From Dictyostelium discoideum (lineage: Eukaryota): 64,000 bases of DNA. Positions 10,180 to 56,032 of the stretch are shown in pieces; the stretch's first letter is position 1; the number at the start of each line of letters is the position of its first letter. The notes beneath the pieces were generated by a model, which was not told the DNA's origin, searched no databases, and saw nothing but the letters and a program-made list of their open reading frames with translations. The stretch is from contig CM000152.2 in NCBI GenBank assembly GCA_000004695.1, forward strand, positions 608,001-672,000, in the 5' to 3' direction. The position numbers and the translations under genes are program-made.

Positions 10180-10890
10180 TTTTTTTATTTTTTATTTTTT
10201 ATTTTTTATTTTTTATTTTTTTTTATTTTTTATTTTTTATTTTTCTTAGTTTTATTCAAAATTAAAAAAAAATCAATGGCAAATATCAAATATTTTTTAT
10301 TTATTTAATTATTTAATTATTTATTTGTTTAATTTTTTATTAGTTTAGTTATTTATTTGTTTTAATTTTTTATTTATTTATTTATTTTTGAAATTCTGTT
10401 AGTGTGGTGTGAGTTTGTGAATTCGAATTTAGTGTATTTTTTTTTTTTTTTAATTATTAAAAAGTTTTTTTTTTTTTATTTTATTTTTTATTTTTTTTAA
10501 TTTTTTTAATTTTTTTTGACTCATTGAAATTAAAAAAAAATCCATATATAGAACGATGGGGTTACACAATTTTGTGAAGGTCTTTTTTTTATAAAATAAT
10601 TGAAAAATCCCAATAAAAATAAAAATATATTTTCATATGAAAAATGTCTAAAAAAAAAAAAAGAATGGCAGAACATTCGTTTTGTTTTTTTTTTTTTTTT
10701 TATTTCTATTTATATATTATTTCAACAAATCTTTTTTTTTTTTATTTTTATTTTTATTTTTTTTTTTTTTTGGGAAGATATTTTTTTTTTTTTATATATA
10801 TTATTATTTTTATTATTATTATTATTATTGTTTATATTTTTTTATTTTACCATGAGTGAAATTATTGACCATAATAAAATTTTTTTTTTT

Positions 10891-39937: not shown

Positions 39938-40079
39938 ATGAATGGAAATAAAAAGATTATAAATCAAATCATTAGGAATGTTGTTCAACAAAACAGTATA
40001 CCCGATGGTACAATGCCAAGTGCAGAGGCATCTTTTGCACTAAATAAATATTTGGATGATCCAAATACTGTAGATTTAG
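39938..40079 (+). CDS. Large unknown protein (about 1150 aa, 5 exons), exon 1
   Basis: Reads MNGNKKIINQIIRNVVQQNSIPDGTMPSAEASFALNKYLDDPNTVDL. The donor is TTA G|gtatgt. Confidence 0.5.
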
Positions 40080-40246
40080 GTATGTTTATACAATTACTAA
40101 TAATAATCATTTATTCTCTATATTATAAATTATTATATATTAATATATTGAATTAATTTTTTCAACTCTAAAATTTTAACACCACACATACATACACACA
40201 TACACACACACACACCACATATAATTAGTTTATATAAATTTAATAG

Positions 40247-40559
40247 AAAGAATTAGAAATGAAAGATCAAATTATGAACAGGTGTTATCAAGAATATTAA
40301 AATTAATAAAGAATAATATAGCAATACATCCACCTTCATGTCAGATATTACTAGATTTGGATAGTTTTTTCTTATTACTTTCGCCTACTTGTGGTTTATT
40401 GGTTCAAAAAACAATTACATATATAAGAGCACTCATTGCTAACCAAGTTAAACAAAACCCAAGTTATGATCACATAAAGAAAACTTTGGTTTTAAATAAT
40501 AATAATATAAATAATAATAGTTTAAATAATAGTCATGGTATTGAGCATAGGTATTTTTT
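40247..40559 (+). CDS. Large unknown protein, exon 2
   Basis: The acceptor taatag|AA restores the GAA codon. Reads ERIRNERSNYEQVLSRILKLIKNNIAIHPPSCQILLDLDSFFLLLSPTCGLLVQKTITYIRALIANQVKQNPSYDHIKK...GIEH. The donor is CAT AG|gtattt. Confidence 0.5.
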
Positions 40560-40641
40560 ATATTTATAAAATCTTCAAAAAAAAAAAAAAAAAATATTTT
40601 ACTTATATATTTTTAAAAATTTTATTTTTATTTATTAAAAG

Positions 40642-40964
40642 CAGTGGTCATAAAAAAACAAATAGTGGAAGTATTGGATTTTTAAGGTATAGAAGTCATT
40701 CAGCGTCAAATTCACAGGTTACCAATAGAGATGATTTTTCATTTCAACGTTCATCATTAGATCTAAGTAATATGTTAGCAACATCAATATCATCAACTAC
40801 ATCATCCAATTCATCCTCATCATCATCATCACCAGTTTCACAAAATGAATCACCTTTAAAAAATACCCTTTTAAGTAATAGTCAAAATAATAATCAAAAT
40901 CATATTAATAATCAAAATCAAAATCAAAATCAAAATCATTTATCTCCGACTTTATCGTCACATC

Positions 40965-41015
<51 letters not shown>

Positions 41016-41183
41016 GTAATAGCAATAGTAATAGTAATAATAATAATAATAATAACAATAACAATAATAATAGTAATATATCTGCGTCCATTAATAGTAA
41101 TAATAGTAATAATGAAACATTAGTATCATCTGTAATATCATCAAAAAATAATAATCATGTATCAAATATAAATAGCAATAGTA

Positions 41184-41234
<51 letters not shown>

Positions 41235-41459
41235 TTGAACAACAACAAAATTCTATATTAACTGGGTCAAATTTAAGTATTGTTGGACATCAGAATAATA
41301 ATGGATTAAGTAATAGTTCAAATCAGCTTGGAGGATCAAATAGTAATATATTAAAAGAAAGTACAAGTTCAGTTTCAAGTAGTGGTTCACCTAACTTTTT
41401 AGTTGATGGCTTTATAAGAGATTTAATGTCTATTAAAGCTTCTTCAAAATCTCAAATTA
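40642..41459 (+). CDS. Large unknown protein, exon 3 (Ser/Asn-rich)
   Basis: Acceptor ttaaaag|C (or cag|T at 40645). Reads SSGHKKTNSGSIGFLRYRSHSASNSQVTNRDDFSFQRSSLDLSN, followed by poly-N/S tracts, then ...SKSQI. The donor is A|gtatgt. Confidence 0.5.
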
Positions 41460-41539
41460 GTATGTAGTTTAATTTATTAATTCATTTATATTTTAAAATA
41501 TACCTAACATTTTTTTTTCTTTTAATAATAATTTTCTAG

Positions 41540-43107
41540 AAGCACAAAGTTTATTAACATATTCACCATTTGGTGGACTAAATAGTCAAAATGAGAATAG
41601 TCCAAAAGCAGTTAATAAGGATATATTTAAATGTCCAGATGATTCACAAAATCATTCAAGAATAAATATAGTTAGAGAATCTAAAAAGAAAGCGGAAAAG
41701 AAAGATCAAACCATTTATACATTTCGAAGAAGAAAACCAGCATTATTTCAATATAAATACTATAAGGATCAAGAGCCATTGAAAATCACTGAACAAGAGA
41801 TAACTCAAGTGGTTAGAGTTATCATTAATCCTGCAACACCACAAGATAGATCAATTGCAACCAAAATATTTATAAAGATCATTTTGGATATTTATTGTCG
41901 TGACGGTTTAGTCGTTCAAAGTTCAGAGAAATTGATTTCAAATTACTTTCATCAATTCATTTCAAGTGTAAATAGAGATACTCGTGCTCATACTTTTAAT
42001 ATTTTATTCAATTTATCAATTCATATTAATCTATATTCAGAATTAAGATTAGAAGATCATCAACAACAACAACAACACCACCACCACCACTCAAATAGTC
42101 AACAACATAATAATAATTTATCAATGATACAAGAATTACACGAGTCAATATTTAGAATAGTAATTGAAATGATTCAATATTTAGTTGATAATAAAGAAAA
42201 AGATGAAAGAACTTGGTCAGAATCATTAAGTTGTGTATTGTTTTTTATAACAGAAGAAGGTGTAGTTCTAAAGGATAAATTGTTCCAATTGAATTCTCAA
42301 ATGATTGCAGCTTTCTTATCAAATATTCAAGATCTAATGAGTGATAGCGTTAGAAGAGTATTAATTAGAATGTTGGCTACTTTTCTTTACAAAGACCCAA
42401 TGGGTAATCATATAAACAATCAAAATAATCTATTGTTTTTAAATGAAGAAGAATTTAATGCAGTTGGTGGTATTCAATTCATACTACAGTTATATACTAC
42501 CGTTAGATCAAGCGAAGCAAAGAATAACCTATTTGTAATTATATTTGATTATGTCCTTCATACAGCTTTAAAGACTCAAACCATTGTTGAAGCTCAAATT
42601 GTAAATGAATCACCATTGCTATTAGAACTCTTTAGAAGATCTGATGCCTCTCATTATTTCACTCAAATTTTCAAATGTATACCAGAACATGGTTTTATTT
42701 CAAAGTTTTTTCTCTACACTTCTGAAGAGGCTAAACATGATTCCTCCTATAGTTACGAAGATTTAATCATAAAGTTCACAATGAAACTTGAAGAATTTGC
42801 AACTCGTTATCAAAGTGTTGATTCAAATTTCGAAAGATTAATAATCGATTGTCAAGAGATACCAGAGAAATATCAACAAATTCTCACTGATTCCTTATCA
42901 AATGAAGATGATGAACAATCATTATTCAACGCTGAAAATTGGTTATTCTTACTCTTAAAGAGAGTTTTAATTGATAAAGATGAAAATTATTCACATTTTA
43001 ATTTCTCCATTAATATTTACTTTCAATTGGCTTCAAATTTAAGTACAAGATTAAGAAGAATTTATATTTCAATAACTGAAAGATTATTATTATTATCAAA
43101 ATTTAGA
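41540..43107 (+). CDS. Large unknown protein, exon 4
   Basis: Acceptor ttttctag|AA. Reads AQSLLTYSPFGGLNSQ...KITEQEITQVVRVIINPATPQDRSIATKIFIKIILDIYCRDGLVVQSSEKL...HQQQQQHHHHH...LSKFR. The donor is AGA|gtaagt. Confidence 0.55.
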
Positions 43108-43110
43108 GTA

Positions 43111-43153
<43 letters not shown>

Positions 43154-43199
43154 AAATTAAAAAGTATTAATTAAATATTTTATTATATATCAACTATAG

Positions 43200-43814
43200 T
43201 TGTCAATAAATGAAACTAAAACAAGTGAAATATTTGATATGTTTAATGAAAGATTTACAAGATTAATTTCTCAAGGTGAAAAATCAGAAAACAATCTTAT
43301 GTATATAGTTGATATTTTATTTGATATGATTTACAAGAGAGCAGGTACAGGTTTATTAAGATCGAAAGAGTCGGTACCAGATACAAATTATTCATTGTTT
43401 TTAACGAATCAATTCGTGGTATCCCTATCACTTTTGAAATTATTTAATATCAATATCATTCAGTATCTATTCAACAATATTCAACACAGTGAAAATACTA
43501 AAGAGCAAAGACTATTCTTGTTACACATTCTAATTCAACGTTGTAAAGATAGTGAAGATTTATTAAAAGTTGGTGGTATTGGATTTTTTAAGAATCTATT
43601 ATCGGATCTTTCAACTCCAATCGCTTACCATTCAAGTTACTTTTTATTGACCCAATTGGAAAATGATTCACCCGAACAATATCGTTCTATCTTGACTCGT
43701 TTACTTCAAAAAGCAAGAGATAACAATAATGAAAATTTACTTTCAAATCCATTTTTCCAAGTTCAAGGTATTGTTGAAATGTCACTTCAACAACCAATTC
43801 AAAATAAAAATTAA
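43200..43814 (+). CDS. Large unknown protein, exon 5
   Basis: Acceptor ctatag|TTG, phase 0. Reads LSINETKTSEIFDMFNERFTRLISQGEKSENNLMYIVDILFDMIYKRAGTG...QNKN*. Confidence 0.55.
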   Translation: MSINETKTSEIFDMFNERFTRLISQGEKSENNLMYIVDILFDMIYKRAGTGLLRSKESVPDTNYSLFLTNQFVVSLSLLKLFNINIIQYLFNNIQHSENTKEQRLFLLHILIQRCKDSEDLLKVGGIGFFKNLLSDLSTPIAYHSSYFLLTQLENDSPEQYRSILTRLLQKARDNNNENLLSNPFFQVQGIVEMSLQQPIQNKN

Positions 43815-43889
43815 ATAATAATTAAAAAATAAATAAATAAAAAAAAAAAAAATAAAAAAATTTAAGCAAACAAATAAAAAAAAAAAAAA

Positions 43890-43953
43890 CCTATGATAAT
43901 AGTAAAAAATATCTATATTAATTAATATAGATATTTTTTACTATTATCATAGG
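43890..43953. repeat. Perfect 64-bp palindrome (inverted repeat with no spacer)
   Basis: cctatgataatagtaaaaaatatctatattaat|taatatagatattttttactattatcatagg is exactly equal to its own reverse complement. Its right arm is KR-domain-like coding sequence of the PKS remnant. Confidence 0.8.
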
Positions 43954-46900
43954 TAATGATAATTTATATAGATTATATGCTCCAACAACTTTTGGATCAT
44001 ATGTTCTATCTAAATGATTCTTATCAATATCTAATATTGGTGAATCAATATTCATAAATTGTTGCCAAATGAATAATTGATGCAACTGGTTCAACATTTT
44101 TATTATTATTGTAGAATGTATTGATTGAATTATTTAAATCATCATAGTTTGAATTTCTATTTTGGTTTATTAGTTTTTTAACTTCCCATTTACAACTTGA
44201 TTTTGAAATTATTATAATATCTTTTAAATGTTTTGGTGCATGATTAATAATCCATTTTGTAATAATTGGTGAAATACTAGTTTGACCAGTAATTAATAAA
44301 GTTGATGGTAATGAATTAATTTCATAATTTGTTTTGATAATGGTCTTATTAATTGTAGAGTTTGAAATAAATTGATCAAAGTTTTGGAAATCAACAACAA
44401 TTTTACCAATGTGTTTTCTATCATTAACATAATAAATTGCTTTTTTTGTTTTTTCGACATAAAATTCTGAAATTGGGATCATTTCTAATTTACTATTGCC
44501 AATATCTCTAAATTATTCTGATAAAATATTAGTAATTCTTGGATTATGTTTACAAACTCTTTCAATATCTATTGTATTATAACCAACATTAAATTTGAAA
44601 TTATTTAAATCAACATTATCATTATCAATTAATTGAGTCATTGATAAACATGAAATTCTTCCAATTTCACTCAATGCATCAAAATTATATTTCAAAAATT
44701 CAACTGATAAAGTATCTAAAATCAAATCAACACCCTTTCCATTAATTTCTTTAATTCTATCACTAAACCTTTTTGATAGTGAACTTGTTTCAGTTGAAAG
44801 TATTTTTGTAATAATATCACCATAATTTTCTAATAGATATTGTTTCTTTTCTTTTGATCCACCAATTGTTACAAAAACATTACCACAATGTTCTTTAGAT
44901 TTTAATAATTTCAATGCAGCCAAACCAACACCGCCACATGCCGAATGGATTAATACTGATTCATCCTTTTCCAATCTACCTAAATGATATAGTGAATAAT
45001 ATGAACTCATATATACCATTGGAATTGATGCTGGTTCAACAAATGATATATTGGTTGGTTTATGAACGAACTAAACGAATGTGGAATTAAACTGGCTACT
45101 TGCTCGTTTAATTTAAATTTGGTAACTTTAGAACCAACTTTTGTTATGATACCAGAACATTCCAAACCTAAAGGTGGATTATAGATATTTCTTTTTGCAA
45201 AAATTTCTTGTGGTAATAATGCTCTCGTTGTTAAATCAGTTCTAAAATAAAATTCAACTTTGTATTTATTTTTTGAACTTGGGAATAAATTTGTTTGTAA
45301 TTTATATCTATTTCCTTCAGTGATAAAAACTGGTAATTTTTTAAATTATGAATTAATATATCTTTTCGTTTGAAAATGTTCGATATATTATCAATGTATC
45401 CACTTCCTGGGAATAAAACTTTTCCTTTAACTCTATGATCATTTAAAAATTTATACATTTTATTTGATGTATCAATTATTGAATGATAAGTTTCGACACC
45501 ATTTATTGATTTTCTACCTTAAATATCAACTGATGGACCTTCTAAAATTTTCTTTTTACTTTTTAATGGATATGACCAATGGATTTCATCATCCCATTGA
45601 TATCTTGGTAGCGATGATGTTGAATCCTTATAGAATTTATCATTTAGTTCTTTTTGATTAAATTGACTTTCAAAATTTAAATTTAAACCAAATCTATTCA
45701 ACGACATGATTGTTGAATTAAAAGAATCAATTTGAGAAGACATCTTCTTATTTAAACTTGTCAAAATTAATGGTTTCAAATTTTTATCTGATGGGATTGA
45801 TTTTTTAATATAATATGCTAATGTTGGAGTTGGTGCTATCTCAATAATAACTGGGTTTTTAAATGATGAATCTTGTTGGTTATCTAAATATTCAAATATT
45901 GATTTAATTGCCTTATTGAATTGTACAGGATTTCTAATATAATTATAAATGTAATCAACATTCATTTGTGATTTTTCAGTTAATTGATCACCATAATGAG
46001 TTGAGAATAATACCTTCATTGGTTTATTTGCATATTTCATATTTATTAAATCTGGGTTATAGAAACCATCTTTAATAATTTCTTGTTTTGATGAATGGAA
46101 TGCAGTGAGTGAACTTAATAATGAAGAGAATATATTATTATTTTGTAAAATAGTTGACAATGATTTTAATTCATTTTCATCACCTGAAACTACGATTGAA
46201 TCTTCAGAATTAAAACATGAAATTTCTAAATTCGGATAACTATTTGAATATTTATTGATTCCTTTTCTCTTAAACCAATTGATAACATTCTACCCATCCT
46301 ACAGTTTTATTTTGAAGCATTGCTCTATAGTAAGAAATGGTGCATGCAGTTTCCAAATCAATAATATTTGAGCAATATGCGGCTGCAACTTCACCAAAGG
46401 AATGACCTAAAATAATTGATGGTTCAATACCCCAACTTTAATATAATTCAACTATTGAAATTTGTAAAAAAAAGAGATATGATTGTGCATTTATTGGTTA
46501 TTAATTTCAATACTATTTGCTGATAATGAATTAACATGTTGGAATACAGAATATTTAAAATGATTTGGTAACATTTTATCAACTTTTATTAATGTGTTTC
46601 TATATAATTCATTATTTTCATATAATTCATTATGCATACCAATATATTGAGGTCCTGCAAAAACAAATATGATTGATGTTTGTTTAACTGGTTTTGAAAT
46701 CTGAAATTGTTGATGGAGATAAAGTTATTGATTTTTCAATTTCATTTAAATCATTCCAATTATTTACCGATACAATATTACGAGCACCAGAAAATATTGT
46801 TTTTGATAAACAATGCTTTTTAACAAAATCTTTAAATTTCATTTTTCCAGAACATGAACCAATATTTTCTTTAATTGTATTTAAATATCTATCTAAAGAA

Positions 46901-47339
46901 TTTATTGAATTTGATGAAAATGGGATTAAATAATTTCTTTCACATTTTCACTTTTTATCTTTTTCAATAAATCTTGGAGGTTCTTCTAAAATTAAATGAA
47001 CATATGATCCAGACATACCAAAATTATTAATTCCAATTGCAACTGGTATTTTTAAATTGTTTGGAAAATCTTCTAATTCTGTTTGAACTTTTAAATTCCA
47101 TTCATCAATTTTAATTTTTGGATTGATTCTTTCAAAATGAATGTTTGGAATGAATTTTTTATATTTTAAACTTAAACAAACTTTAATAAATGAACCAACA
47201 CCACTTGCTGCTTCCATATGGCCAATGTTGGTTTTAACTGAACCAATTCTTAATGGATTTGATTTTGAATGATGATCTTTAAAAACCATTGAAACAGATT
47301 CTACCTCGGTTGGATCACCAGTTGGAGTACCATAATCCT
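43922..47339 (-). pseudogene. Polyketide synthase pseudogene remnant, truncated at both ends and interrupted by frameshifts (KS C-term, AT, DH, ER, KR N-term)
   Basis: In the 5'→3' direction on the minus strand the fragments are as follows. KS: DYGTPTGDPTEVESVSMVFKDHH...GSVKTNIGHMEAASG. AT: SWGIEPSIILGHSFGEVAAAYCS and ...IRNPVQFNKAIKSI...VIIEIAPTPTLAYYIKK. DH: LNDHRVKGKVLFPGSGYID. ER: FVEPASIPMVYMSSYYSLYHLGRLEKDESVLIHSACGGVGLAALKLL. KR: LLITGQTSISPIITKWIIN...DPKVVGAYNLYKLSLPMI. These pieces lie in different frames separated by stops, for example 1-nt frameshifts near 45050 and 44045. Each domain is shorter than in intact Dictyostelium PKS genes. No upstream KS exon or downstream ACP is present. 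Confidence 0.65.
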
Positions 47340-47827
47340 ATAATAAATTTTAATTTTAATAATATATATTTTATTAATTTTTAAATCATCTAAAAAAAAA
47401 AGAAAAAAAAAAAATTGTTGAAAAAAAAAAAAAAAAAAAGATAAAAATAACCCCACCACCACTTTATTAAAATATGAATATTTTTTTGTGGGATTTGAAA
47501 CCACAAATCGTAAAATTACATATATTTTTTATTTGGTTTGACACATGGTGTCTAAAATGAATTCAAATGAAAATATTATTTTAAATAAGAAAATATCATT
47601 AAATTTTAAAAAAATACTAAAATTTAATTGGTTTTTTTTTCAATATAAATTTGTTTTTTATTTTATTTTATTAAAATTAATTAATATTACAACAATGTGT
47701 ATAATCTATTGTTTTTTCAGACATTTGTCGTTACGTAATTTTTTTTTTTTTTTTATTTATTGTATTTTATTTTATTTTATTTAATTTTATTTTATTTTAT
47801 TTTATTTTATTTATTTTAGAGTTTTTC

Positions 47828-47858
<31 letters not shown>

Positions 47859-47950
47859 TAAAGTTTTAGTATTGAATTGTTACAAGAAATAATTTCTATC
47901 AAATAAAAAGAAATTTTAATTAATAACTTTTTATTTTAAAATTATTATTA

Positions 47951-48498
47951 TTAAGGAGAAGAATCGGCTCGATCTTTTAGAATTAAATTTAATAAAGAAT
48001 ATGAAGATGTTAAAGTTTTTCTATTTTTTCTCTTTTTATAAATAACAACCAAGGCTATAACTATTATTAAAATACCAGCTGGAGTTCCTATTGACAATGA
48101 AAGTATTAATGCTAAATGGTTTGGTCTATTATATTTTCCTCTGTCATCATAAAATGTTGGCTTGATTGGGAAAAATGAAAAATCATATTCATATCTCTGA
48201 TTTTCAATTGATTGTTCAATATATTCATTATTCAATTCTTTATTTATAGCATAATTATTATTATTAGGTATGATTTGATCTAATTGGAAATTAAAATTAA
48301 AAGTAAATGATTTAATTTCATGAGGTTTAATTTGAATAGTTTCAATTGTTTTGTTGTTTTCACCTTTATTCTCACCATCAATAATATTATTTGTTCCATT
48401 ATTTGAGAAAATAATTGATGATGGTTTTTCATTTATAAATGAATATTCTGATTCACCACATTTGACTGGGAATTTTTTATTTATTCTTGTTGAATATT
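47951..48498 (-). CDS. GH38 alpha-mannosidase copy 1, exon 4 (C-terminal, with TM anchor)
   Basis: Acceptor taattag|AA. Reads KYSTRINKKFPVKCGESEYSFINEKPSSIIF...NNEYIEQSIENQRYEYDFSFFPIKPTFYDDRGKYNRPNHLALILSLSIGTPAGILIIVIALVVIYKKRKNRK...*. Near-identical to exon 4 of copy 2. Confidence 0.75.
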
Positions 48499-48587
48499 CT
48501 AATTATTATTTTATTTTATTTTTTTTTAAAAAAAAAGTTAGTAAAAATTCTAATAAATAGAAAATAATAATTTTATAATGTACATAC

Positions 48588-51181
48588 TATCAATTAAATT
48601 ATTTTTTGTTAATTTTAAAAAAGATAAACCAGTTTCAATAAAGTTTGATATTTCTAATTCGTTAAATAATGTTGATTTATCGGTATCAGTAGTAGATTGA
48701 GTATTTGAATCAACTTCATGAATATTGAATAATCTTAAACCGACTGTATTGTTTTTTAATGTTAATAATGATTGTAAATGAATATTTGAAGGTAATTGAT
48801 TTGATAATGGTGAATATTTTAATAAATAACCAGTTTGATTATTGTGTTTTTTGACAAACATAATTGGTTGATTTGTAATATGTAAACTTATTCTTTTTTC
48901 ATTTTGTAATTGATTATTAACCAAATCCATATTAAAGTATAATTTAGCATCACTTCTTCCAATATCTTTACTTGGCCAATTTACTCCTTTCCAATCATCA
49001 GTATCCATAGTTCTATGAATCATAATTTCCATTTCGCCATCTGATGGTGATGTTGCGCCAACTGATCTATCTACATAAACTGTATATTGATGATTATTAT
49101 TTTCTGAGGTTTCTTTTAATTTTATATAACCTAAAACTGGGTAATAATTTTGATTGACAGTTCTATCATGATTGTAAATTCTTTTTCTAGATTCTAAACC
49201 ATTATCAGTATAAAATATATCATCATTTTCAAGATCTTTTACTTTATAATTGATTGTTGTTTCTCTATTCATATCACCGTTAATTGAATAACCAGTTTCA
49301 ATGTAATTCTCTGTGATTAATGATTTGCTATTACTATTATCGATTTCATTGTTTTTATAAATTCTTTGAACTACAATCGATGTTACATTGCAACCATCAT
49401 CTACACCATATAACATTGTTAATTGAGATACTAATGGGCCATCGTGGTAGATGAATTTATCAGGGTTCTCTAAGAATCCGTGTTTTTTACCACCTTTAAC
49501 ATTGAAAATGTATGGACCACTCTTTTTAGTTGAATATTGATGGAATGTTTGTTCGATTGTTTTAATTTCATTTGAATTTTTATCAGTTATTTTACTTATT
49601 AAACCATTTGATTCGAATTCTACTTTGAATCTATTATTATTAAAATTAATTTCATTTCCTTTTTTCAATAGTTTTGGTTTTGATAAAATGGTATTTGGTT
49701 TTGAATCTTCATTACTAGAAATACTTAGATAATAAGTATTTAAACCTAATGGTGGTAAATTAATAATTGCAAATACAATATAATTATTTTCAATTGATTG
49801 ACAATTTGAATCATCTTGAATTGGTATTATTTGAATTTGAATTGTTTTATTTGATATAGCTTCAACCAATTGAATTGATTCTAATAATTGATTATCATTT
49901 TTATTAACTTTTATTCTAAATGAAACATGTTGGTTAACTTCCCAACCTAATGTATTGTGGAATACTAATGAATATTGATTATTTATTTCATTTGATAAAT
50001 CTATTACATTTTCAAAATTGAATGGTTCATTTGTACTGTCTGTATTTTCATTATTATTATTATCTTTATTTAATAAATATTCTAAAGAATTTGAAATGAT
50101 ATTATAATTTGAAATTCTTGATTTTTGTAATCTTTGGAAATTATCATTTAAAACAAATGATCTTGAAGTACCTGTAACAATATCATGATGTTGAACCAAT
50201 GCTATTGTATTTCTATTTTCATTTAATTGATTTGATAACGTTTGTAAATTATTAATATCGATTTGATTATTTGAATTTTCGCCAATTGCTAAAGTGTATA
50301 ATATATCTGATGATTTTTGTAAAAGACTTGATTCTCTAATCAATCTTTTTAACAATGGTCTTGTTGTATAATATCCTGTCCAATATTCTAAATCACCAGT
50401 TGAATATGGAAAGAAATCTTTATTATATAATGATAATGTTGATGAAAAACCTGTCTTTAAATTCTCCTCTACAGTTTTACCAAGTTTATTCATAAATTCG
50501 TCCTCTAAAGCAATGAAATATTCATCTATTGTTGCATATTTAATTTCTTTTATATTATACTTTTCTTTATTATCTTGAATAACTTTTAACCATTCTTTTG
50601 AAACTGAAAATTCATTTTTTGCATTTGAATATCTGAAATCATCACCCAATGGAATCATTAGTATGCTTGATTCTCTGGTATTTGATAAATCTTTAATATA
50701 TTTAGTGAATCCTTTAACACGCTCTTCTAATGAAAAATCTTTCTTTGGGTCAATATGCTTTGGATAATCATAATGAACATTTAATGTGGAAACTAACATT
50801 TGTGATTGTTCTCCTAATGATTCTGAACCTTTCCATATGAATTCCATTTCTTTGGCTGATTTCATATAAGATTTAACATCATCTGAAACACGATTAATAA
50901 TTAATCCTTTTATACCCATACTTGAAAAAATGGTTGGTGTTGATGATGAATATCCAAATGGATCGATTTGCCATGCATATTCTATTGTATAGTTAAGTGT
51001 ATCTTTTAACCATTGATGGCCTTGTGTCATTTGTGTTATAACATCATCAATTGTTGCTGTTGCTTCATCATTTTGTACCCATCCACCACTAATAAATGAT
51101 AGTTGTTTATTATTTATTAAATTTCTAACAATTTCTCTTTGATTTTCATTTCGGTCATTCCACCACCTACTAAAAAATCCA
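48588..51181 (-). CDS. GH38 alpha-mannosidase copy 1, exon 3 (catalytic core)
   Basis: Acceptor cacag|T. Reads IGFFSRWWNDRNENQREIVRNLINNKQLSFISGGWVQNDEATATIDDVITQMTQGHQWLKDTLNYTIEYAWQIDPFGYSS.... These are the GH38 core motifs. The donor is GAT A|gtatgtacat. Confidence 0.85.
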
Positions 51182-51320
51182 CTGTGAGTGTGTAAAATAT
51201 AAAAAAAAGGAATAAAAAAAAAAATGGAAAAATAAAAAAAAGAAAAAGGGTGGTTAGTGGGAATAAATAAAAAAAAAATAATAATAATAATAAAGAAGTT
51301 GGAAAATATAAAAACCATAC

Positions 51321-51412
51321 ATTTCTACCCAATTAAATTTCTTTTCTTTATCTAAATTTAATTCATTCACAATACCTGATAAAATATATTGAACAACATG
51401 ATTATAATACCA
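51321..51412 (-). CDS. GH38 alpha-mannosidase copy 1, exon 2
   Basis: Acceptor aaatacag|TGG. Reads WYYNHVVQYILSGIVNELNLDKEKKFNWVE. The donor is AT|gtatgg. Together with the next exon this rebuilds the conserved ...VEIAFFSRWW block. Confidence 0.75.
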
Positions 51413-51489
51413 CTGTATTTAAAATAATTGTTAGAAAAGAAAATAAAAAAATGACTAATAATTAAAACTAAAAAAAACTCAATACAAAC

Positions 51490-51738
51490 GTCATAATCTT
51501 GTAACCAACCACTATCACAATGAGAATGGGGTATTAAAAATATAGATAATTTTTCATCTTTTAAATCTCCATTTAATTGGAATATCTTTTTTAAACTTTG
51601 AGAATTATTATTATAATTTACTATTTCAAAATTTTCATTATAAATATTGATAATAAAAGTTGATAACAAAATCCATACTCCAATAACAAATATAATTTTA
51701 ATTAATTTGGTTTTATTCATTTCTTTTATTTTTAACAT
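51490..51738 (-). CDS. GH38 alpha-mannosidase copy 1, exon 1
   Basis: Starts at ATG 51738. The second ATG at 51720 aligns with the start of copy 2. It encodes a signal/TM segment and then ...SIFLIPHSHCDSGWLQDYD, the GH38 HxxPHSHxDxGW motif. The donor is GAC|gtttgt. Confidence 0.75.
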
Positions 51739-52401
51739 TTATTTTTGGATTTCAAAATAAAAAAAAATCATTGACATAAAAAACACCAAGAAAAAAAAAA
51801 AGTATTAAAAAATATAATATAAAAAAAAAAATTACACGAAAATAAAAAAAAAACAACACCAAAATAAAAAAAAATTTAATTTTTTGGAAAATATCGTCAT
51901 ATAGCAAAAAAAAAAAAATTGTGATGTTTCAAAAAGTAAAAAAACGTCATAAAAAAAACAAAATTCCTAAAAATTCAGACTATCAGACAAAAGTAAGTGA
52001 ATTGATTTCCTACCTTTTGAGGTTTTTATGTTTTAGATTGGGTGAGGAAATATTCGTAGAGAATTTAATTGTAAAAAAAAAAAAAATTTTAAATTAAAAA
52101 TAATAAAAATAAAATTAAAAAAAAAAAAACCTTAATATCCACAGGAAAATATCTTGGACTTTCAAGAAATTTTTTTTTTTACAACCTTTTTTTTCATTTT
52201 TTAAAAAACTCAATATTTTGGATGGTTTACAACCGCTGGAATATATGAAGATAAAAAATATTTTTTGTTTTTTTTTTTTTTTATTTTTATTTTTAGCTTA
52301 TTTTACATTTTTTTATTTTATTTTATTTTATTTTTTGATTTTTATTTTTATTTTGATTGTTTTTTTATTTTTTTATTTTTATTTTTAAATTATTATTATT
52401 T

Positions 52402-52964
52402 TTAAGGAGAATAATCAGTTTGGTCTTCTTGTTGAATTAAATTTGATGAAGAATTTGAAGATGTTAAAGTTTTTCTATTTTTTCTCTTTTTATAAGTAAC
52501 AACCAAGGCTATAACTATTATTAAAATACCAGCTGGAATTCCTATTGACAATGAAAGTATTAATGCTAAATGGTTTGGTCTATTATATTTTCCTCTGTCA
52601 TCATAAAATGTTGGCTTGATTGGGAAAAATGAAAAATCATATTCATATCTCTGATTTTCAATTGATTGTTCAATATATTCATTATTCAATTCTTTATTTA
52701 TAGCATACTTATTATTATTATTATTATTATTAGGTATGATTTGATCTAATTGGAAATTAAAATTAAAAGTAAATGATTTAATTTCATGAGGTTTAATTTG
52801 AATAGTTTCAATTGTTTTGTTGTTTTCACCTTTATTCTCACCATCAATAATATTATTTGTTCCATTATTTGAGAAAATAATTGATGATGGTTTTTCATTT
52901 ATAAATGAATATTCTGATTCACCACATTTGATTGGAAATTTTTTATTTATTCTTGTTGAAAATT
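52402..52964 (-). CDS. GH38 alpha-mannosidase copy 2, exon 4
   Basis: Acceptor aattag|AA. Reads KFSTRINKKFPIKCGESEYSFINEKPSSIIF...TM segment...TYKKRKNRKTLTSSNSSSNLIQQEDQTDYSP*. The cytoplasmic tail differs from copy 1. Confidence 0.75.
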
Positions 52965-53047
52965 CTAATTATTATTTTATTAATTTTTTTTAAAAAAAAA
53001 AAAAAGTTAGTTAAATTCTAAATATATATATATAATATTGTACATAC

Positions 53048-54587
53048 TATCAATTAAATTATTTTTTGTTAATTTTAAAAAAGATAAACCAGTTTCAATA
53101 AAGTTTGATATTTCTAATTCGTTAAATAATGTTGATTTATCGGTATCAGTAGTAGATTGAGTATTTGAATCAACTTCATGAATATTGAATAATCTTAAAC
53201 CGACTGTATTGTTTTTTAATGTTAATAATGATTGTAAATGAATATTTGAAGGTAATTGATTTGATAATGGTGAATATTTTAATAAATAACCAGTTTGATT
53301 ATTGTGTTTTTTGACAAACATAATTGGTTGATTTGTAATATGTAAACTTATTCTTTTTTCATTTTGTAATTGATTATTAACCAAATCCATATTAAAGTAT
53401 AATTTAGCATCACTTCTTCCAATGTCTTTACTTGGCCAATTTACTCCTTTCCAATCATCAGTATCCATAGTTCTATGAATCATAATTTCCATTTCGCCAT
53501 CTGATGGTGATGTTGCGCCAACTGACCTATCTACATAAACTGTATATTGATGATTATTATTTTCTGAGGTTTCTTTTAATTTTATATAACCTAAAACTGG
53601 GTAATAATTTTGATTGACGCTTCTATCATGATTGTAAATTCTTTTTCTAGATTCTAAACCATTATCAGTATAAAATATATCATCATTTTCAAGATCTTTT
53701 ACTTTATAATTGATTGTTGTTTCTCTATTCATATCACCGTTAATTGAATAACCAGTTTCAATGTAATTCTCTGTGATTAATGATTTGCTATTACTATTAT
53801 TGATTTCATTATTATTTTTATAAATTCTTTGAACTACAATCGATGTTACATTACAATAATCATCTACACCATATAACATTGTTAATTGAGATACTAATGG
53901 GCCATCGTGGTAGATGAATTTATCAGGGTTCTCTAAGAATCCGTGTTTTTTACCACCTTTAACATTGAAAATGTATGGACCACTCTTTTTAGTTGAATAT
54001 TGATGGAATGTTTGTTCGATTGTTTTAATTTCATTTGAATTTTTATCAGTTATTTTACTTATTAAACCATTTGATTCGAATTCTACTTTGAATCTATTAT
54101 TATTAAAATTAATTTCATTTCCTTTTTTCAATAATTTTGGTTTTGATAAATAGGTGAAATTTGATTTTGAATCTTCGCTATTAGCAATACTTAAATAATA
54201 AGTATTTAAACCTAATGGTGGTAAATTAATAATTGCAAATACAATATAATTATTTTCAATTGATTGACAATTTGAATCATCTTGAATTGGTATTATTTGA
54301 ATTTGAATTGTTTTATTTGATATAGCTTCAACCAATTGAATTGATTCTAATAATTGATTATCATTTTTATTAACTTTTATTCTAAATGAAACATGTTGGT
54401 TAACTTCCCAACCTAATGTATTGTGGAATACTAATGAATATTGATTATTTGATTCATTTGATAAATCTATTGCATTTTCAAAATTGAATGGTTCACTTTT
54501 ATTTACAGTATTATTATTATTATTACTACTACCACTACCACTACTACTGCTACTACCTGTTGTACTAATACTATTTGTATTTTTAAG

Positions 54588-54642
<55 letters not shown>

Positions 54643-55818
54643 TTATTATTATTATTATTTGTTTTGTTATTACTTTTATTTAATAAATATTCTAAAGAAT
54701 TTGAAATGATATTATAATTTGAAATTCTTGATTTTTGTAATCTTTGGAAATTATCATTTAAAACAAATGATCTTGAAGTACCTGTAACAATATCATGATG
54801 TTGAACCAATGCTATTGTATTTCTATTTTCATTTAATTGATTTGATAACGTTTGTAAATTATTAATATCGATTTGATTATTTGAATTTTCGCCAATTGCT
54901 AAAGTGTATAATATATCTGATGATTTTTGTAAAAGACTTGATTCTCTAATCAATCTTTTTAACAATGGTCTTGTTGTATAATATCCTGTCCAATATTCTA
55001 AATTACCAGTTGAATATGGAAAGAAATCTTTATTATATAATGACAATGCTGATACCTCATCATCACCATCACTAAAAGTTTCAGTGTAAACATTTTGTTT
55101 TCTACTTTTACCAAATTTATTATTTCTCAAGAAACTATCCTCCAAAGCAATGAAATATTCATCTAAAGTTGCATATTTAATTTCTTTGATATTGTAATAT
55201 TCTTTATTATCTTGTAAAGCTTTTACCCACTCTTTTGAAACTGAAAATTCAGTTTTTGCATTTGAATATCTGAAATCATCACCTAATGGAATCATTAGTA
55301 TGTTTGACTCTCTAGTTTTTGATAAATCATTGAGATATTTAGTGAATCCTTTGATACGATCATTTAATGAAAAATCTTTCTTTGGGTCAATATGTTTTGG
55401 ATAATCATAATGGATATTTAATGTGGAAACTAACATTTGTGATTGTTCTCCTAATGATTCTGAACCTTTCCATATGAATTCCATTTCTTTGACTGATTTC
55501 ATATAAGATTTAACATCATTTGAAACACGATTAATAACTAATCCTTTTATACCCATACTTGAAAAAATGGTTGGTGTTGATGATGAATATCCAAATGGAT
55601 CGATTTGCCATGCATACTCTACTGTATAGTTAAGTGTATCTTTTAACCATTGATGGCCTTGTGTCATTTGTGTTATAACATCATCAATTGTTGCTGTTGC
55701 TTCATCATTTTGTACCCATCCACCACTAATAAATGATAATTGTTTATTATTTATTAAATTTCTAACAATTTCTTTTTGAATTTCATTTTGGTCATTCCAC
55801 CACCTACTAAAAAATCCA
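53048..55818 (-). CDS. GH38 alpha-mannosidase copy 2, exon 3
   Basis: The same acceptor and donor as in copy 1. The frame is open from GFFSRWWNDQNEIQKEIVRNLINNKQLSFISGGWVQNDEATATIDDVITQMTQGHQW.... It is 177 nt longer than exon 3 of copy 1 because of an Asn/Ser-rich insertion around 54500-54700. Confidence 0.85.
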
Positions 55819-55940
55819 CTGTGTGTGAAATATAAAATAAAAAAATGAAAAAAAAAAAAAAAAAAATGAAAAAGGTGGTTAGTGGGAAAATGAAAAAAAA
55901 AAAAAAAAAAAAAAAGTAAAAATATTTAATGAAACGTTAC

Positions 55941-56032
55941 ATTTCTACCCAATTAAATTTCTTTTCTTTATCTAAATTTAATTCATTAACAACACCAGAT
56001 AAAATATATTGAACAATATTATAATAATATCC
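55941..56032 (-). CDS. GH38 alpha-mannosidase copy 2, exon 2
   Basis: Acceptor ttttgatag|GGA. Reads GYYYNIVQYILSGVVNELNLDKEKKFNWVE. Donor AT|gtaacg. Confidence 0.7.

Follow-up and report, generated by a model that had tools for sequence, protein, structure and literature searches.

Remnant of a fully reducing polyketide synthase gene, very probably a recently inactivated unitary pseudogene, downstream of manE in Dictyostelium discoideum

Introduction

The polyketide synthase (PKS) family is subject to lineage-specific expansion (PMC3188802), and five PKS pseudogenes have been reported in D. discoideum. Among proteins of solved structure, Pks16 is the best match both to the intact ortholog of the locus described here (E=0, 1858 bits) and to the AT-DH piece of the remnant (E 2e-44). 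Pks16 shares with the remnant's ancestor a dimeric, iterative type I, fully reducing architecture; however, it is a distant paralog, about 45% identical in the AT-DH segment (read off the alignment), and is functional, lies elsewhere in the genome and is longer (2603 aa), whereas no MT domain could be detected in the remnant's ortholog. The five reported pseudogenes, of which the remnant may or may not be one, are of the same kind and share its gene family and genome; with half of the gene deleted, decay of the remnant has gone much further than simple interruption by stop codons.

The window analysed here is a 64,000-nt stretch of D. discoideum chromosome 3. A preliminary description of it, made from the letters alone, had interpreted a 3.4-kb segment as a PKS pseudogene left by internal deletions, and a base-by-base comparison with an intact syntenic ortholog led to the same interpretation. 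Our comparison indicates that the segment very probably derives from a gene for an iterative type I fully reducing (FAS-like) PKS that was recently inactivated in place and no longer functions, which makes it a unitary pseudogene. It is an ordinary kind of feature, a recently dead gene.

Results

Location and content of the remnant

The remnant occupies 3384 bp on the minus strand (window 47337→43954), between the convergent manE (alpha-mannosidase E, DDB_G0278651) and a conserved gene encoding 1138 aa. manE lies directly upstream on the same strand as the remnant, with its stop codon at 47951. Translation of the minus strand recovered every motif quoted in the preliminary description, in the order KS-C, AT, DH, ER and KR; with the KS-AT linker included, the arrangement of the retained parts (KS C-terminus, linker, AT, DH N-terminus, ER, KR N-terminus) is canonical. 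The left edge had been placed at 43922, which is the centre of a palindrome; PKS homology ends at 43954. The expectation that the segment had shrunk to about half of an intact module was borne out by the 7008 bp of the intact ortholog gene. Pfam searches of the open reading frame pieces identified Ketoacyl-synt_C (6.9e-13), KAsynt_C_assoc (3.7e-10), Acyl_transf_1 (9.6e-05), PKS_DH_N (2e-05) and ADH_zinc_N (1.2e-07). About 50% of the ortholog codons are left, none of the domains is intact, and the longest open stretch spans 256 codons. The coordinates of all features are listed in Table 1.

Table 1. Features of the PKS remnant, disabling changes relative to the intact ortholog, and tblastn matches of P0145 to the window
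Feature	Window position	Strand	Ortholog residues or domain	Basis or detail
Ancestral PKS upstream intergenic sequence, retained	47500..47950	minus		colinear anchors to L008; boundaries imprecise, AT-rich
Ancestral intron 1 remnant	47338..47451	minus		acceptor AG at 47339-47338
First 8 nt of ancestral exon 2 (GATTATGG, from GTTTATGG), 5′ deletion junction	47330..47337	minus		junction comparison
KS C-terminal part and KS-AT linker	46866..47329	minus	aa ~321-386 and aa 389-475	Pfam, codon projection onto ortholog
Stop CAA→TGA	46950		aa 447, KS/linker part	
Frameshift +1	46695		AT	
AT domain, GHSFG retained	45779..46670	minus	aa 540-841	Pfam, codon projection
In-frame 6-bp deletion	46656		AT	
Frameshift -1	46499		AT	
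Stop AAA→TAA	46440		aa 619, AT	
Frameshift -1	46294		AT	
Frameshift -4	46259		AT	
Stop TTA→TAA	45521		aa 927, AT-DH linker	
DH N-terminal part, HRVKGKVLFP retained	45228..45452	minus	aa 950-1026	
Frameshift -4	45339		DH	
1757-bp deletion junction	45225..45227	minus		window 45227 = L007 13257; window 45225 = L007 15014
ER domain remnant, GGVG NADPH motif retained	44395..45224	minus	aa 1612-1899	
28-bp frameshifting deletion	45067		ER	
In-frame 3-bp deletion	44531		ER	
Stop CTA→TAA	44515		aa 1859, ER	
KR N-terminal two-thirds	43954..44302	minus	aa 1930-2057	
In-frame 36-bp deletion	44153		KR	
Frameshift +4	44049		KR	
Perfect 64-bp zero-spacer palindrome, 3′ deletion junction	43890..43953	none		repeat search
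tblastn piece			aa 320-532	91% identity
tblastn piece			aa 532-987	
tblastn piece			aa 990-1027	
tblastn piece			aa 1601-1666	
tblastn piece			aa 1674-2026	87% identity
tblastn piece			aa 2027-2058	94% identity

Intact orthologs at the same site

When a stitched 1129-aa conceptual protein was used as the query, the matches listed, ranked by shared short exact words, reached at most 39-45% identity and were all shorter than 2000 aa; they included neither the 2275-aa ortholog nor the short protein models identical to parts of the query, and the ortholog was recovered by an exhaustive search of representatives. Intact orthologs are present in two genomes assigned to Dictyostelium cf. discoideum, as ACTFIZ_006979 (KAM9982459.1, 2275 aa) and ACTFIY_005255 (KAM9989227.1, 2278 aa). 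The genes of P0145 (2275 aa) and P0291 are both flanked by the second mannosidase on one side and the conserved neighbour gene on the other, and the order in both genomes (L007 and L008) is that of the window, namely manD, manE, PKS, the 1138-aa gene and peptidase S28, with colinear flanks. The intact gene comprises three exons, and Pfam assigns KS_N, KS_C, AT, DH, ER, KR and ACP domains to P0145. No MT domain was detected in P0145 by Pfam or in its DH-ER interdomain region at E≤10. The preliminary description had listed MT, ACP and the KS N-terminus as missing; all three are absent, ACP and the KS N-terminus by deletion, and the absence of MT is ancestral and not a product of decay.

P0145 matched the window by tblastn far beyond chance (E=0), in pieces that fall in three different frames. 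Over 1115 comparable codons the remnant is 91% identical in amino acids to the intact orthologs, with about 92% identity at the DNA level, and its 256-aa AT-DH piece is 90% identical to P0145. DNA identity to L007 is 92.2% in the KS-DH segment, 91% in the flank, and 87.5% by BLAST or 91.3% excluding gaps in the ER-KR segment. No parent paralog was found in D. discoideum, and the D. cf. discoideum ortholog serves as the reference copy. The orthologs share with the remnant the slot, orientation, domain order, upstream sequence and intron-1 sequence; they differ from it in being complete, three-exon genes under purifying selection, whereas the remnant carries 11 point disablements and large deletions. 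The orthologous gene died in place, and the remnant is not the decayed extra copy of a paralog.

Non-coding sequence of the ancestral gene is also retained. Upstream anchors at window 47967, 47891, 47729, 47578 and 47558 correspond to L008 9109, 9199, 9310, 9472 and 9519. From window 47451 to 47330 the sequence aligns to L008 10311-10422 (79.5% identity, E 1.5e-24) and is near-identical over its final ~60 nt, up to TATTATAG; intron 1 of L008 spans 10313-10416. The intron acceptor that had been pointed out (ttattatag, followed by GATTATGG) is thus genuine, a relic of ancestral intron 1, and the upstream exon reported as missing has been deleted. Since no intron interrupts the ortholog at aa ~320, the acceptor had been considered a coincidental product of the deletion junction; this view was reversed because the sequence upstream of the acceptor aligns to intron 1 of the ortholog. 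A separate candidate, a tRNA or B-box origin for the motif GTGGTTTCAAATCCCAC at ~47500, was rejected: ARAGORN predicted no tRNA in the window, and the motif also occurs upstream of the intact gene in L008.

Large deletions and disabling mutations

Exon 1 with the start codon is absent from the remnant, and the N-terminal 325 aa of P0145 had no tblastn match in the locus; the exact limits of the deletion that took exon 1 and the promoter are blurred by AT-rich low-complexity sequence. A further ~0.7 kb was lost from exon 2, after its first 8 nt, to KS codon ~320, with an ATGG microhomology at the fusion. In total, ortholog aa 1-319 are missing, and with them the whole of Pfam ketoacyl-synt N, the beginning of KS_C and the region of the KS active-site Cys. 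The second deletion, of 1757 bp, shifts the frame and removed ortholog aa ~1027-1611, that is, the C-terminal half of DH, an interdomain region of ~400 aa and the beginning of ER; its junction bears a 3-nt AGA microhomology and one extra G. At the 3′ end, ~0.7 kb comprising the KR C-terminus, ACP and the stop codon is gone. Relaxing tblastn to E<1 still gave no match in the vicinity of the locus to the KS N-terminus, the ACP or the interdomain segment. The 3-4-nt microhomologies at two of the deletion junctions suggest that these arose by microhomology-mediated repair or replication slippage.

In addition, the remnant contains seven small frameshifting indels and four stop codons created by substitution at conserved sense codons. 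Together with the frame-shifting deletion, these make the six or more frameshifts or stops counted in the preliminary description a conservative figure. In the KS part the second His motif (KTNIGH) is kept, and the His of HGTGT is lost through an H→Y replacement and a 6-bp slip deletion that leave YGT. The AT domain keeps GHSFG, yet it is cut by four frameshifts and one stop codon. In KR, the Gly of the NADPH loop has become Ser (TGQTGISP→TGQTSISP), and the region of the catalytic Ser and Tyr (SSVAS…Y, aa ~2066-2085) is deleted, as is the ACP with its phosphopantetheine-attachment Ser (DSL motif), within the missing ortholog aa 2059-2275. A functional reducing PKS was rejected as a description of the locus, since a continuous frame, a complete KS, an ACP and a complete KR are all absent.

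A palindrome at the 3′ junction

The 3′ deletion ends in the palindrome. Flank alignment to two other D. discoideum isolates (L001 and L002) identifies one arm (43890-43921) as ancestral 3′ flank; the other (43922-43953) repeats it exactly in inverted form and takes the place of the ~0.7 kb missing relative to L007. All related loci (eight genomes) keep a short inverted repeat at this position. The 32-nt templated, inverted duplicate of the flank at this third junction suggests an origin by fold-back (snap-back) synthesis at the pre-existing short inverted repeat, and the palindrome may be a clean trace left in nature by fold-back repair in Dictyostelium. The sole Rfam match, a sub-threshold miRNA hairpin on the palindrome, was treated as a chance match.

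Other lineages at the same site

In L001 and L002, which come from the ACTFIW/ACTFIR assemblies, the slot holds an ACP-only relic (aa 2230-2273, 89% identity), and D. citrinum (L003) likewise holds an ACP-only relic (aa 2148-2183 and 2224-2269). No PKS trace was found at the site in D. firmibasis and D. dimigraforme, where the intergenic gaps measure 165-200 bp. The ACP relics derive from the same ancestral gene as the remnant and occupy the same intergenic slot, but they retain the ACP that the window has lost, whereas everything kept in the window is lost there. This complementarity indicates that the large deletions are separate in each lineage, and the death of the gene in the AX2/AX4 lineage was most likely independent of that in the lineages with ACP relics. 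The isolates themselves are close to the window: the flanks in ACTFIW/ACTFIR show 98-99.7% nucleotide identity over ~1.56 kb of the neighbour gene, and their manE differs by a dS of 0.07-0.08 with dN/dS of about 0.15. The possibility that the remnant is an insertion specific to the window lineage, as the ~480 bp gaps in L001 and L002 might imply, was rejected because these gaps hold the ACP relic and an intact syntenic gene exists.

[quoted passage not shown] The AX2/AX4 lineage, the ACTFIW/ACTFIR lineage and D. citrinum may represent three candidate losses. Extending this, we tentatively consider a reading in which a PKS making one polyketide was lost at least three separate times, recurrently and possibly as an adaptation or in connection with ecology, instead of by random decay, with the palindrome as the footprint of fold-back repair. 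We regard this as possible but doubtful; if losses were recurrent, the pattern of presence and absence would let comparative metabolomics assign the polyketide product and its role.

Time of inactivation

The time of death was estimated from 107 substitutions assigned by a three-taxon parsimony count. On the window branch 57 changes are nonsynonymous and 50 synonymous (omega 0.28), compared with 75 and 130 on the two intact branches together (omega 0.17 and 0.11); the difference is significant (Fisher p = 0.0055), and even the window branch departs strongly from neutrality (binomial p = 5e-10). The two intact copies, compared with each other, give a dN/dS of 0.12-0.17, as under purifying selection. 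Constraint was relaxed on the window branch, and the modest elevation is consistent with a recent death. We infer that roughly one sixth of the lineage's terminal branch was unconstrained, and the death of the gene was therefore recent.

Alternative explanations

Two explanations would leave the gene alive. Splicing might remove the breaks and yield a shorter PKS or a stand-alone domain protein, and the genuine acceptor at 47339-47338 and the protein models that predictors built from the pieces (P0139, P0141, P0143, P0293, P0294) could be cited for this; but exon 3 of both intact orthologs continues without interruption through each of the breaks, which consist of 1-28-bp indels and four nonsense substitutions, the domains are all incomplete (the KS Cys region, the C-terminal half of DH, the KR Ser/Tyr region and the ACP are missing), and exon 1 with its ATG is deleted. 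A predicted intron joining manE to KS would measure ~700 nt and so be unusually long by Dictyostelium standards. We consider a spliced, live gene extremely improbable. The genome is AT-rich and full of homopolymers, errors of sequencing or assembly might likewise conceal an intact gene, and three of the small indels are indeed single A or T bases (46695, 46499, 46294). Homopolymer errors nevertheless cannot explain the three or four deletions of 0.6-1.8 kb, the indels measuring 4, 4, 4 and 28 bp or the four stops created by substitution; the same broken pieces recur in old UniParc protein models that were predicted independently (P0141, P0143, P0142, P0294), and GCA_054883475.1, a Nanopore and Illumina assembly (PMC12745789), matches the window with 100% identity over 16 kb. 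Errors of this sort deserve almost no credence. Spliced transcripts and homopolymer errors were the two routes by which the preliminary description had thought the pseudogene reading could fail, and neither accounts for the breaks.

The remnant might instead have been dead on arrival, as a partial DNA duplication or a 5′-truncated retrocopy of a PKS paralog that never functioned here. The 5′ truncation of the locus, the lack of a PKS at the site in D. firmibasis and D. dimigraforme and the known expansion of the family would all fit. A full-length, constrained gene nevertheless occupies exactly the same slot in two sister species, the ACP end is kept there in other isolates and D. citrinum, and the low omega of the window branch indicates constraint for most of its length; a retrocopy, moreover, would not retain upstream intergenic and intron-1 sequence at the orthologous location. 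An arrival in the dead state is accordingly very unlikely. Somewhat less remote, though still very unlikely, is co-option of the DNA as an extended 3′ UTR or terminator of manE, as a non-coding RNA or, through the palindrome, as a hairpin between the convergent genes. The position directly downstream of manE on the same strand and the short inverted repeat kept at the palindrome site in all eight genomes speak for it, but conservation of the remnant itself was not seen, closely related isolates have deleted it wholly while both flanking genes were left, and Rfam offers only the sub-threshold hairpin. Under the preferred reading, that of a gene recently dead in place, we infer that the remnant is now only spacer or 3′-flank DNA downstream of manE; residual transcription, for example by read-through from manE, is a possibility.

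Annotation and wider relevance

The locus provides a dated case of PKS gene death in a family of fast turnover. It also reveals a PKS that cryptic sister species possess and the laboratory strain lacks, which bears on the use of the D. discoideum PKS count of '40' as the repertoire of the species complex. For DNA repair in this organism the deletion junctions offer minor natural examples, two of microhomology and one of a templated inverted insertion. The main practical value lies in annotation hygiene, and models built from the pieces need a flag as pseudogene fragments. In the automated annotation of a 2025 D. discoideum assembly, manE and the KS/AT wreck are fused into a 1649-aa 'protein' (ACTFIT_010039) and two more 'proteins' are called from the ER and KR pieces; older UniParc models contain the same errors.

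An intact ortholog of the PKS remnant

Polyketide synthase (PKS)-like pieces extend on the minus strand of the window (G+C, 22%) from 47337 to 43954, in the 4.1 kb that separate a pair of convergent genes, the conserved neighbour gene and an alpha-mannosidase gene that falls in a protein cluster with D. discoideum AX4 Alpha-mannosidase E (manE; DDB_G0278651, MANE_DICDI). Three-frame translation recovered the motifs GSVKTNIGHMEAASG, GHSFGE, DHRVKGKVLFPGSGY, HSACGGVG, LLITGQTS and DPKVVGAYNLY, spread across all three frames in the canonical order KS-C, AT, DH, ER, KR, as the preliminary description had stated. ORF fragments matched the Pfam families Ketoacyl-synt_C (6.9e-13), KAsynt_C_assoc (3.7e-10), Acyl_transf_1, PKS_DH_N and ADH_zinc_N. 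Given these motifs, the Pfam matches and the placement between convergent genes, the initial observation is therefore real.

The matches listed in an initial homolog search all showed ≤45% identity and were <2000 aa, and already showed that the remnant is truncated at either end and has a large gap inside. An exhaustive representative search identified P0145 (ACTFIZ_006979, 2275 aa, 'Dictyostelium cf. discoideum'), which is 90% identical to the 256-aa open AT-DH piece; the next best match to this piece reached 44%. A second copy, P0291 (ACTFIY_005255, 2278 aa), is present in a different 'cf. discoideum' genome. Both genes lie between a tandem pair of mannosidase genes, next to the second of the pair, and the neighbour gene, which is followed by a peptidase-S28 gene. 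Because this gene order is identical to that of the window, they are orthologs of the remnant, not paralogs. The search for a parent copy thus allowed the deletions to be mapped, but yielded the syntenic ortholog P0145 and not the paralog that had been expected. The ortholog gene has three exons, exon 3 being unbroken between aa ~150 and the stop codon, and its Pfam domain set is complete (KS-AT-DH-ER-KR-ACP). No methyltransferase (MT) domain was detectable in P0145, with the DH-ER interdomain region searched to E≤10. The spacer that separates the start of the intact PKS from manE has an extra ~1.3 kb in ACTFIZ (~2.15 kb; L007 7847-10001) relative to ACTFIY (~0.88 kb; L008 9125-10001).

Damage relative to the ortholog

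Reverse-complemented window DNA was aligned with L007, the ACTFIZ locus, giving three colinear blocks (Table). The remnant lacks exon 1 and the start codon, although ancestral upstream intergenic sequence is kept in part. Of intron 1, the 3′ ~60-110 nt are kept together with the acceptor AG at 47339-47338, which accounts for the acceptor previously noticed without an upstream exon: exon 1 is deleted. Exon 2 survives in its first 8 nt, which are joined to KS codon ~320 at an ATGG microhomology; the 5′ deletion (~0.7 kb) took out the remainder of exon 2, intron 2 and the beginning of exon 3. An internal deletion of 1757 bp at 45227/45225, with an AGA microhomology at its junction, removed aa ~1027-1611, and a 3′ deletion of ~0.7 kb removed aa ~2059-2275 and the stop codon, corresponding to the KR C-terminus and ACP. 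These three deletions bear out the proposed origin of the pseudogene by internal deletion.

Features of the PKS remnant and its flanks (changes are relative to the ortholog; nonsense substitutions were counted where both orthologs have a sense codon)
Feature	Window position	Strand	Counterpart or change
Conserved neighbour gene (~1138 aa), left of remnant	end at 43814	plus
Alpha-mannosidase gene, right of remnant	end at 47951	minus
Block, KS-C to DH-N	47332→45227		L007 11137-13257; 92.2% identity
Block, ER to KR	45225→43953		L007 15014-16349; 87.5% identity (91.3% excluding gaps)
Block, 3′ flank and neighbour gene	43939→		L007 17032…; 91% identity
In-frame 6-bp deletion	~47325 (47330-47320)		GGTAC slip in direct repeat GGTACTGGTAC; KS HGTGT→YGT
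Nonsense	46950	minus	aa 447 CAA→TGA
Frameshift	46695	minus	+1
In-frame indel	46656	minus	6 bp
Frameshift	46499	minus	−1
Nonsense	46440	minus	aa 619 AAA→TAA
Frameshift	46294	minus	−1
Frameshift	46259	minus	−4
Nonsense	45521	minus	aa 927 TTA→TAA
Frameshift	45339	minus	−4
Frameshift	45067	minus	−28
In-frame indel	44531	minus	3 bp
Nonsense	44515	minus	aa 1859 CTA→TAA
In-frame indel	44153	minus	36 bp
Frameshift	44049	minus	+4

Where six or more frameshifts or stops had been noted, the alignment resolved 7 frameshifting indels and 4 nonsense substitutions; the 6-bp deletion in the KS is a textbook replication-slippage deletion. Only 1149 of the 2275 ortholog codons could be projected. The KS Cys region, the DH C-terminal half, the KR Ser/Tyr region and ACP are all missing from the remnant, and its KR NADPH-loop carries a Gly to Ser change. 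The reported absence of ACP and the KS N-terminus thus holds as loss of ACP and the KS Cys region, whereas MT is equally undetectable in the intact protein.

Authenticity of the breaks and alternative explanations

Enzymatic function cannot remain because not one domain is complete, and a live gene spliced across the breaks was rejected. Sequencing error was also rejected: window 40000-56000 (sixteen kilobases) is 100% identical to CM142509.1 of the Nanopore+Illumina assembly GCA_054883475.1 (D. discoideum, locus tags ACTFIT), the same clusters include older UniParc entries assembled from identical broken pieces, and homopolymer errors are ruled out by the kilobase-scale deletions, 4-28 bp indels and substitution stops. 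These entries, inferred to be early AX4 gene predictions, comprise P0141 (KS remnant joined by splicing to a mannosidase), P0143 (AT piece), and P0142 and P0294 (DH/ER/KR pieces).

A dead-on-arrival duplicate or retrocopy was likewise rejected. Over 1115 gap-free shared codons, dN/dS was 0.19 for window versus L007, 0.16 for window versus L008 (the ACTFIY locus) and 0.12 for L007 versus L008. By three-taxon parsimony, the window branch carries 57 nonsynonymous and 50 synonymous changes (omega 0.28), the L007 branch 51 and 74 (0.17), and the L008 branch 24 and 56 (0.11). The window branch thus has a significant nonsynonymous excess (Fisher p = 0.0055), yet it remains far from neutral (binomial p = 5e-10). 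Co-option of the remnant DNA as a 3′ UTR or non-coding RNA finds no support in these sequence comparisons, since the whole segment is gone from the genomes of close relatives, where both flanking genes stay closely conserved.

The evidence supports a unitary PKS pseudogene that died recently, has lost half of its length by deletion and has an identified intact ortholog, which sharpens the earlier interpretation of the remnant as a PKS pseudogene. About 40 PKS genes and five pseudogenes interrupted by stop codons have been reported in D. discoideum (PMC9618038), and the Dictyostelium PKS family shows lineage-specific turnover (PMC3188802), so the remnant is an ordinary case of a known kind; Pks16 is only a distant paralog.

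The same stretch is misannotated elsewhere. In GenBank, the ACTFIT annotation has a 1649-aa 'hypothetical protein' (ACTFIT_010039) that joins manE to the KS/AT pieces, and it presents the ER/KR pieces as 280-aa and 145-aa proteins. Older UniParc models make similar calls, one of them by splicing manE to the kept intron-1 acceptor. The models concerned (P0139, P0293, P0292, P0141, P0143, P0142 and P0294; L006 10001-17676, ~ window ~51720-44045) are pseudogene fragments wrongly annotated as proteins.

Probable independent losses in related genomes

The assemblies compared come from a study of AX2-214, wild D. discoideum isolates, two 'possible cryptic species', D. citrinum and D. dimigraforme (PMC12745789). 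Neighbour-gene distance to the window was 0.010-0.012 for the D. discoideum isolates ACTFIW and ACTFIR, 0.015 for ACTFIY, 0.029 for ACTFIZ, 0.064 for D. citrinum and D. dimigraforme, and 0.095 for D. firmibasis. In ACTFIW and ACTFIR (flank dS to the window, 0.05-0.08), just ~480 bp separate the flanking genes and hold an ACP relic (…KSYGIDSLLIVQLKNY…) corresponding to ortholog aa 2230-2273 at 89% identity. In D. citrinum (flank dS ~0.3), the surviving ACP-end relic is longer (aa 2148-2183 and 2224-2269). No PKS trace was found within the 165-200-bp gaps between the flanking genes in D. firmibasis and D. dimigraforme. The gene is thus intact in two 'cf. discoideum' lineages and cut down by differing, non-overlapping deletions in the window lineage, ACTFIW/ACTFIR and D. 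citrinum.

Assuming an omega of ~0.14 in the living gene and 1 once dead, the pseudogene share of the window branch is about one sixth, or ~0.012 substitutions per site. Flank divergence from ACTFIW/ACTFIR, counted per branch, exceeds this value, which therefore fits death after that split; hence we infer, with wide error, that inactivation was independent of those isolates.

Separately, a 732-aa gene model that lies upstream of an adh_short gene in D. citrinum (L003 482-3933, minus) may represent a further fragment derived from a PKS: it has an ACP_SdgA_C match and aligns weakly with P0145 aa 451-582 (L003 1205-810, 33% identity). Its counterparts in ACTFIR (L002) and L005 have no more than a faint Chlam_PMP match.

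A palindrome at the 3′ junction and other features

A perfect 64-bp zero-spacer palindrome (43890-43953) lies exactly at the 3′ deletion junction. One arm (43890-43921) is ancestral flank common to ACTFIW and ACTFIR; the other, its exact inverted copy, abuts the last KR codon. At this site between the convergent genes, a short inverted repeat (AAAAA..ATATC–loop–GATAT..TTTTT) is conserved in 8/8 genomes. The palindrome looks like a fold-back (snap-back) repair footprint, in which, on the simplest account, a break within the inverted-repeat loop would be followed by fold-back priming at a TAATTA/TTAA micro-palindrome, copying of the flank and joining of the end to the KR breakpoint.

Within the kept PKS upstream region, a tRNA B-box-like motif, GTGGTTTCAAATCCCAC, occurs at ~47505-47489, and L008 has a similar one, GTGGGTTCAATTCTCA, at ~9690, upstream of the intact PKS; ARAGORN found no tRNA gene in the window. 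Between manE and its tandem paralog (manD-like), a 387-bp tract (55053-54667 versus 50443-50057) is 98.7% identical, against only 89-96% in its surroundings, which suggests gene conversion.
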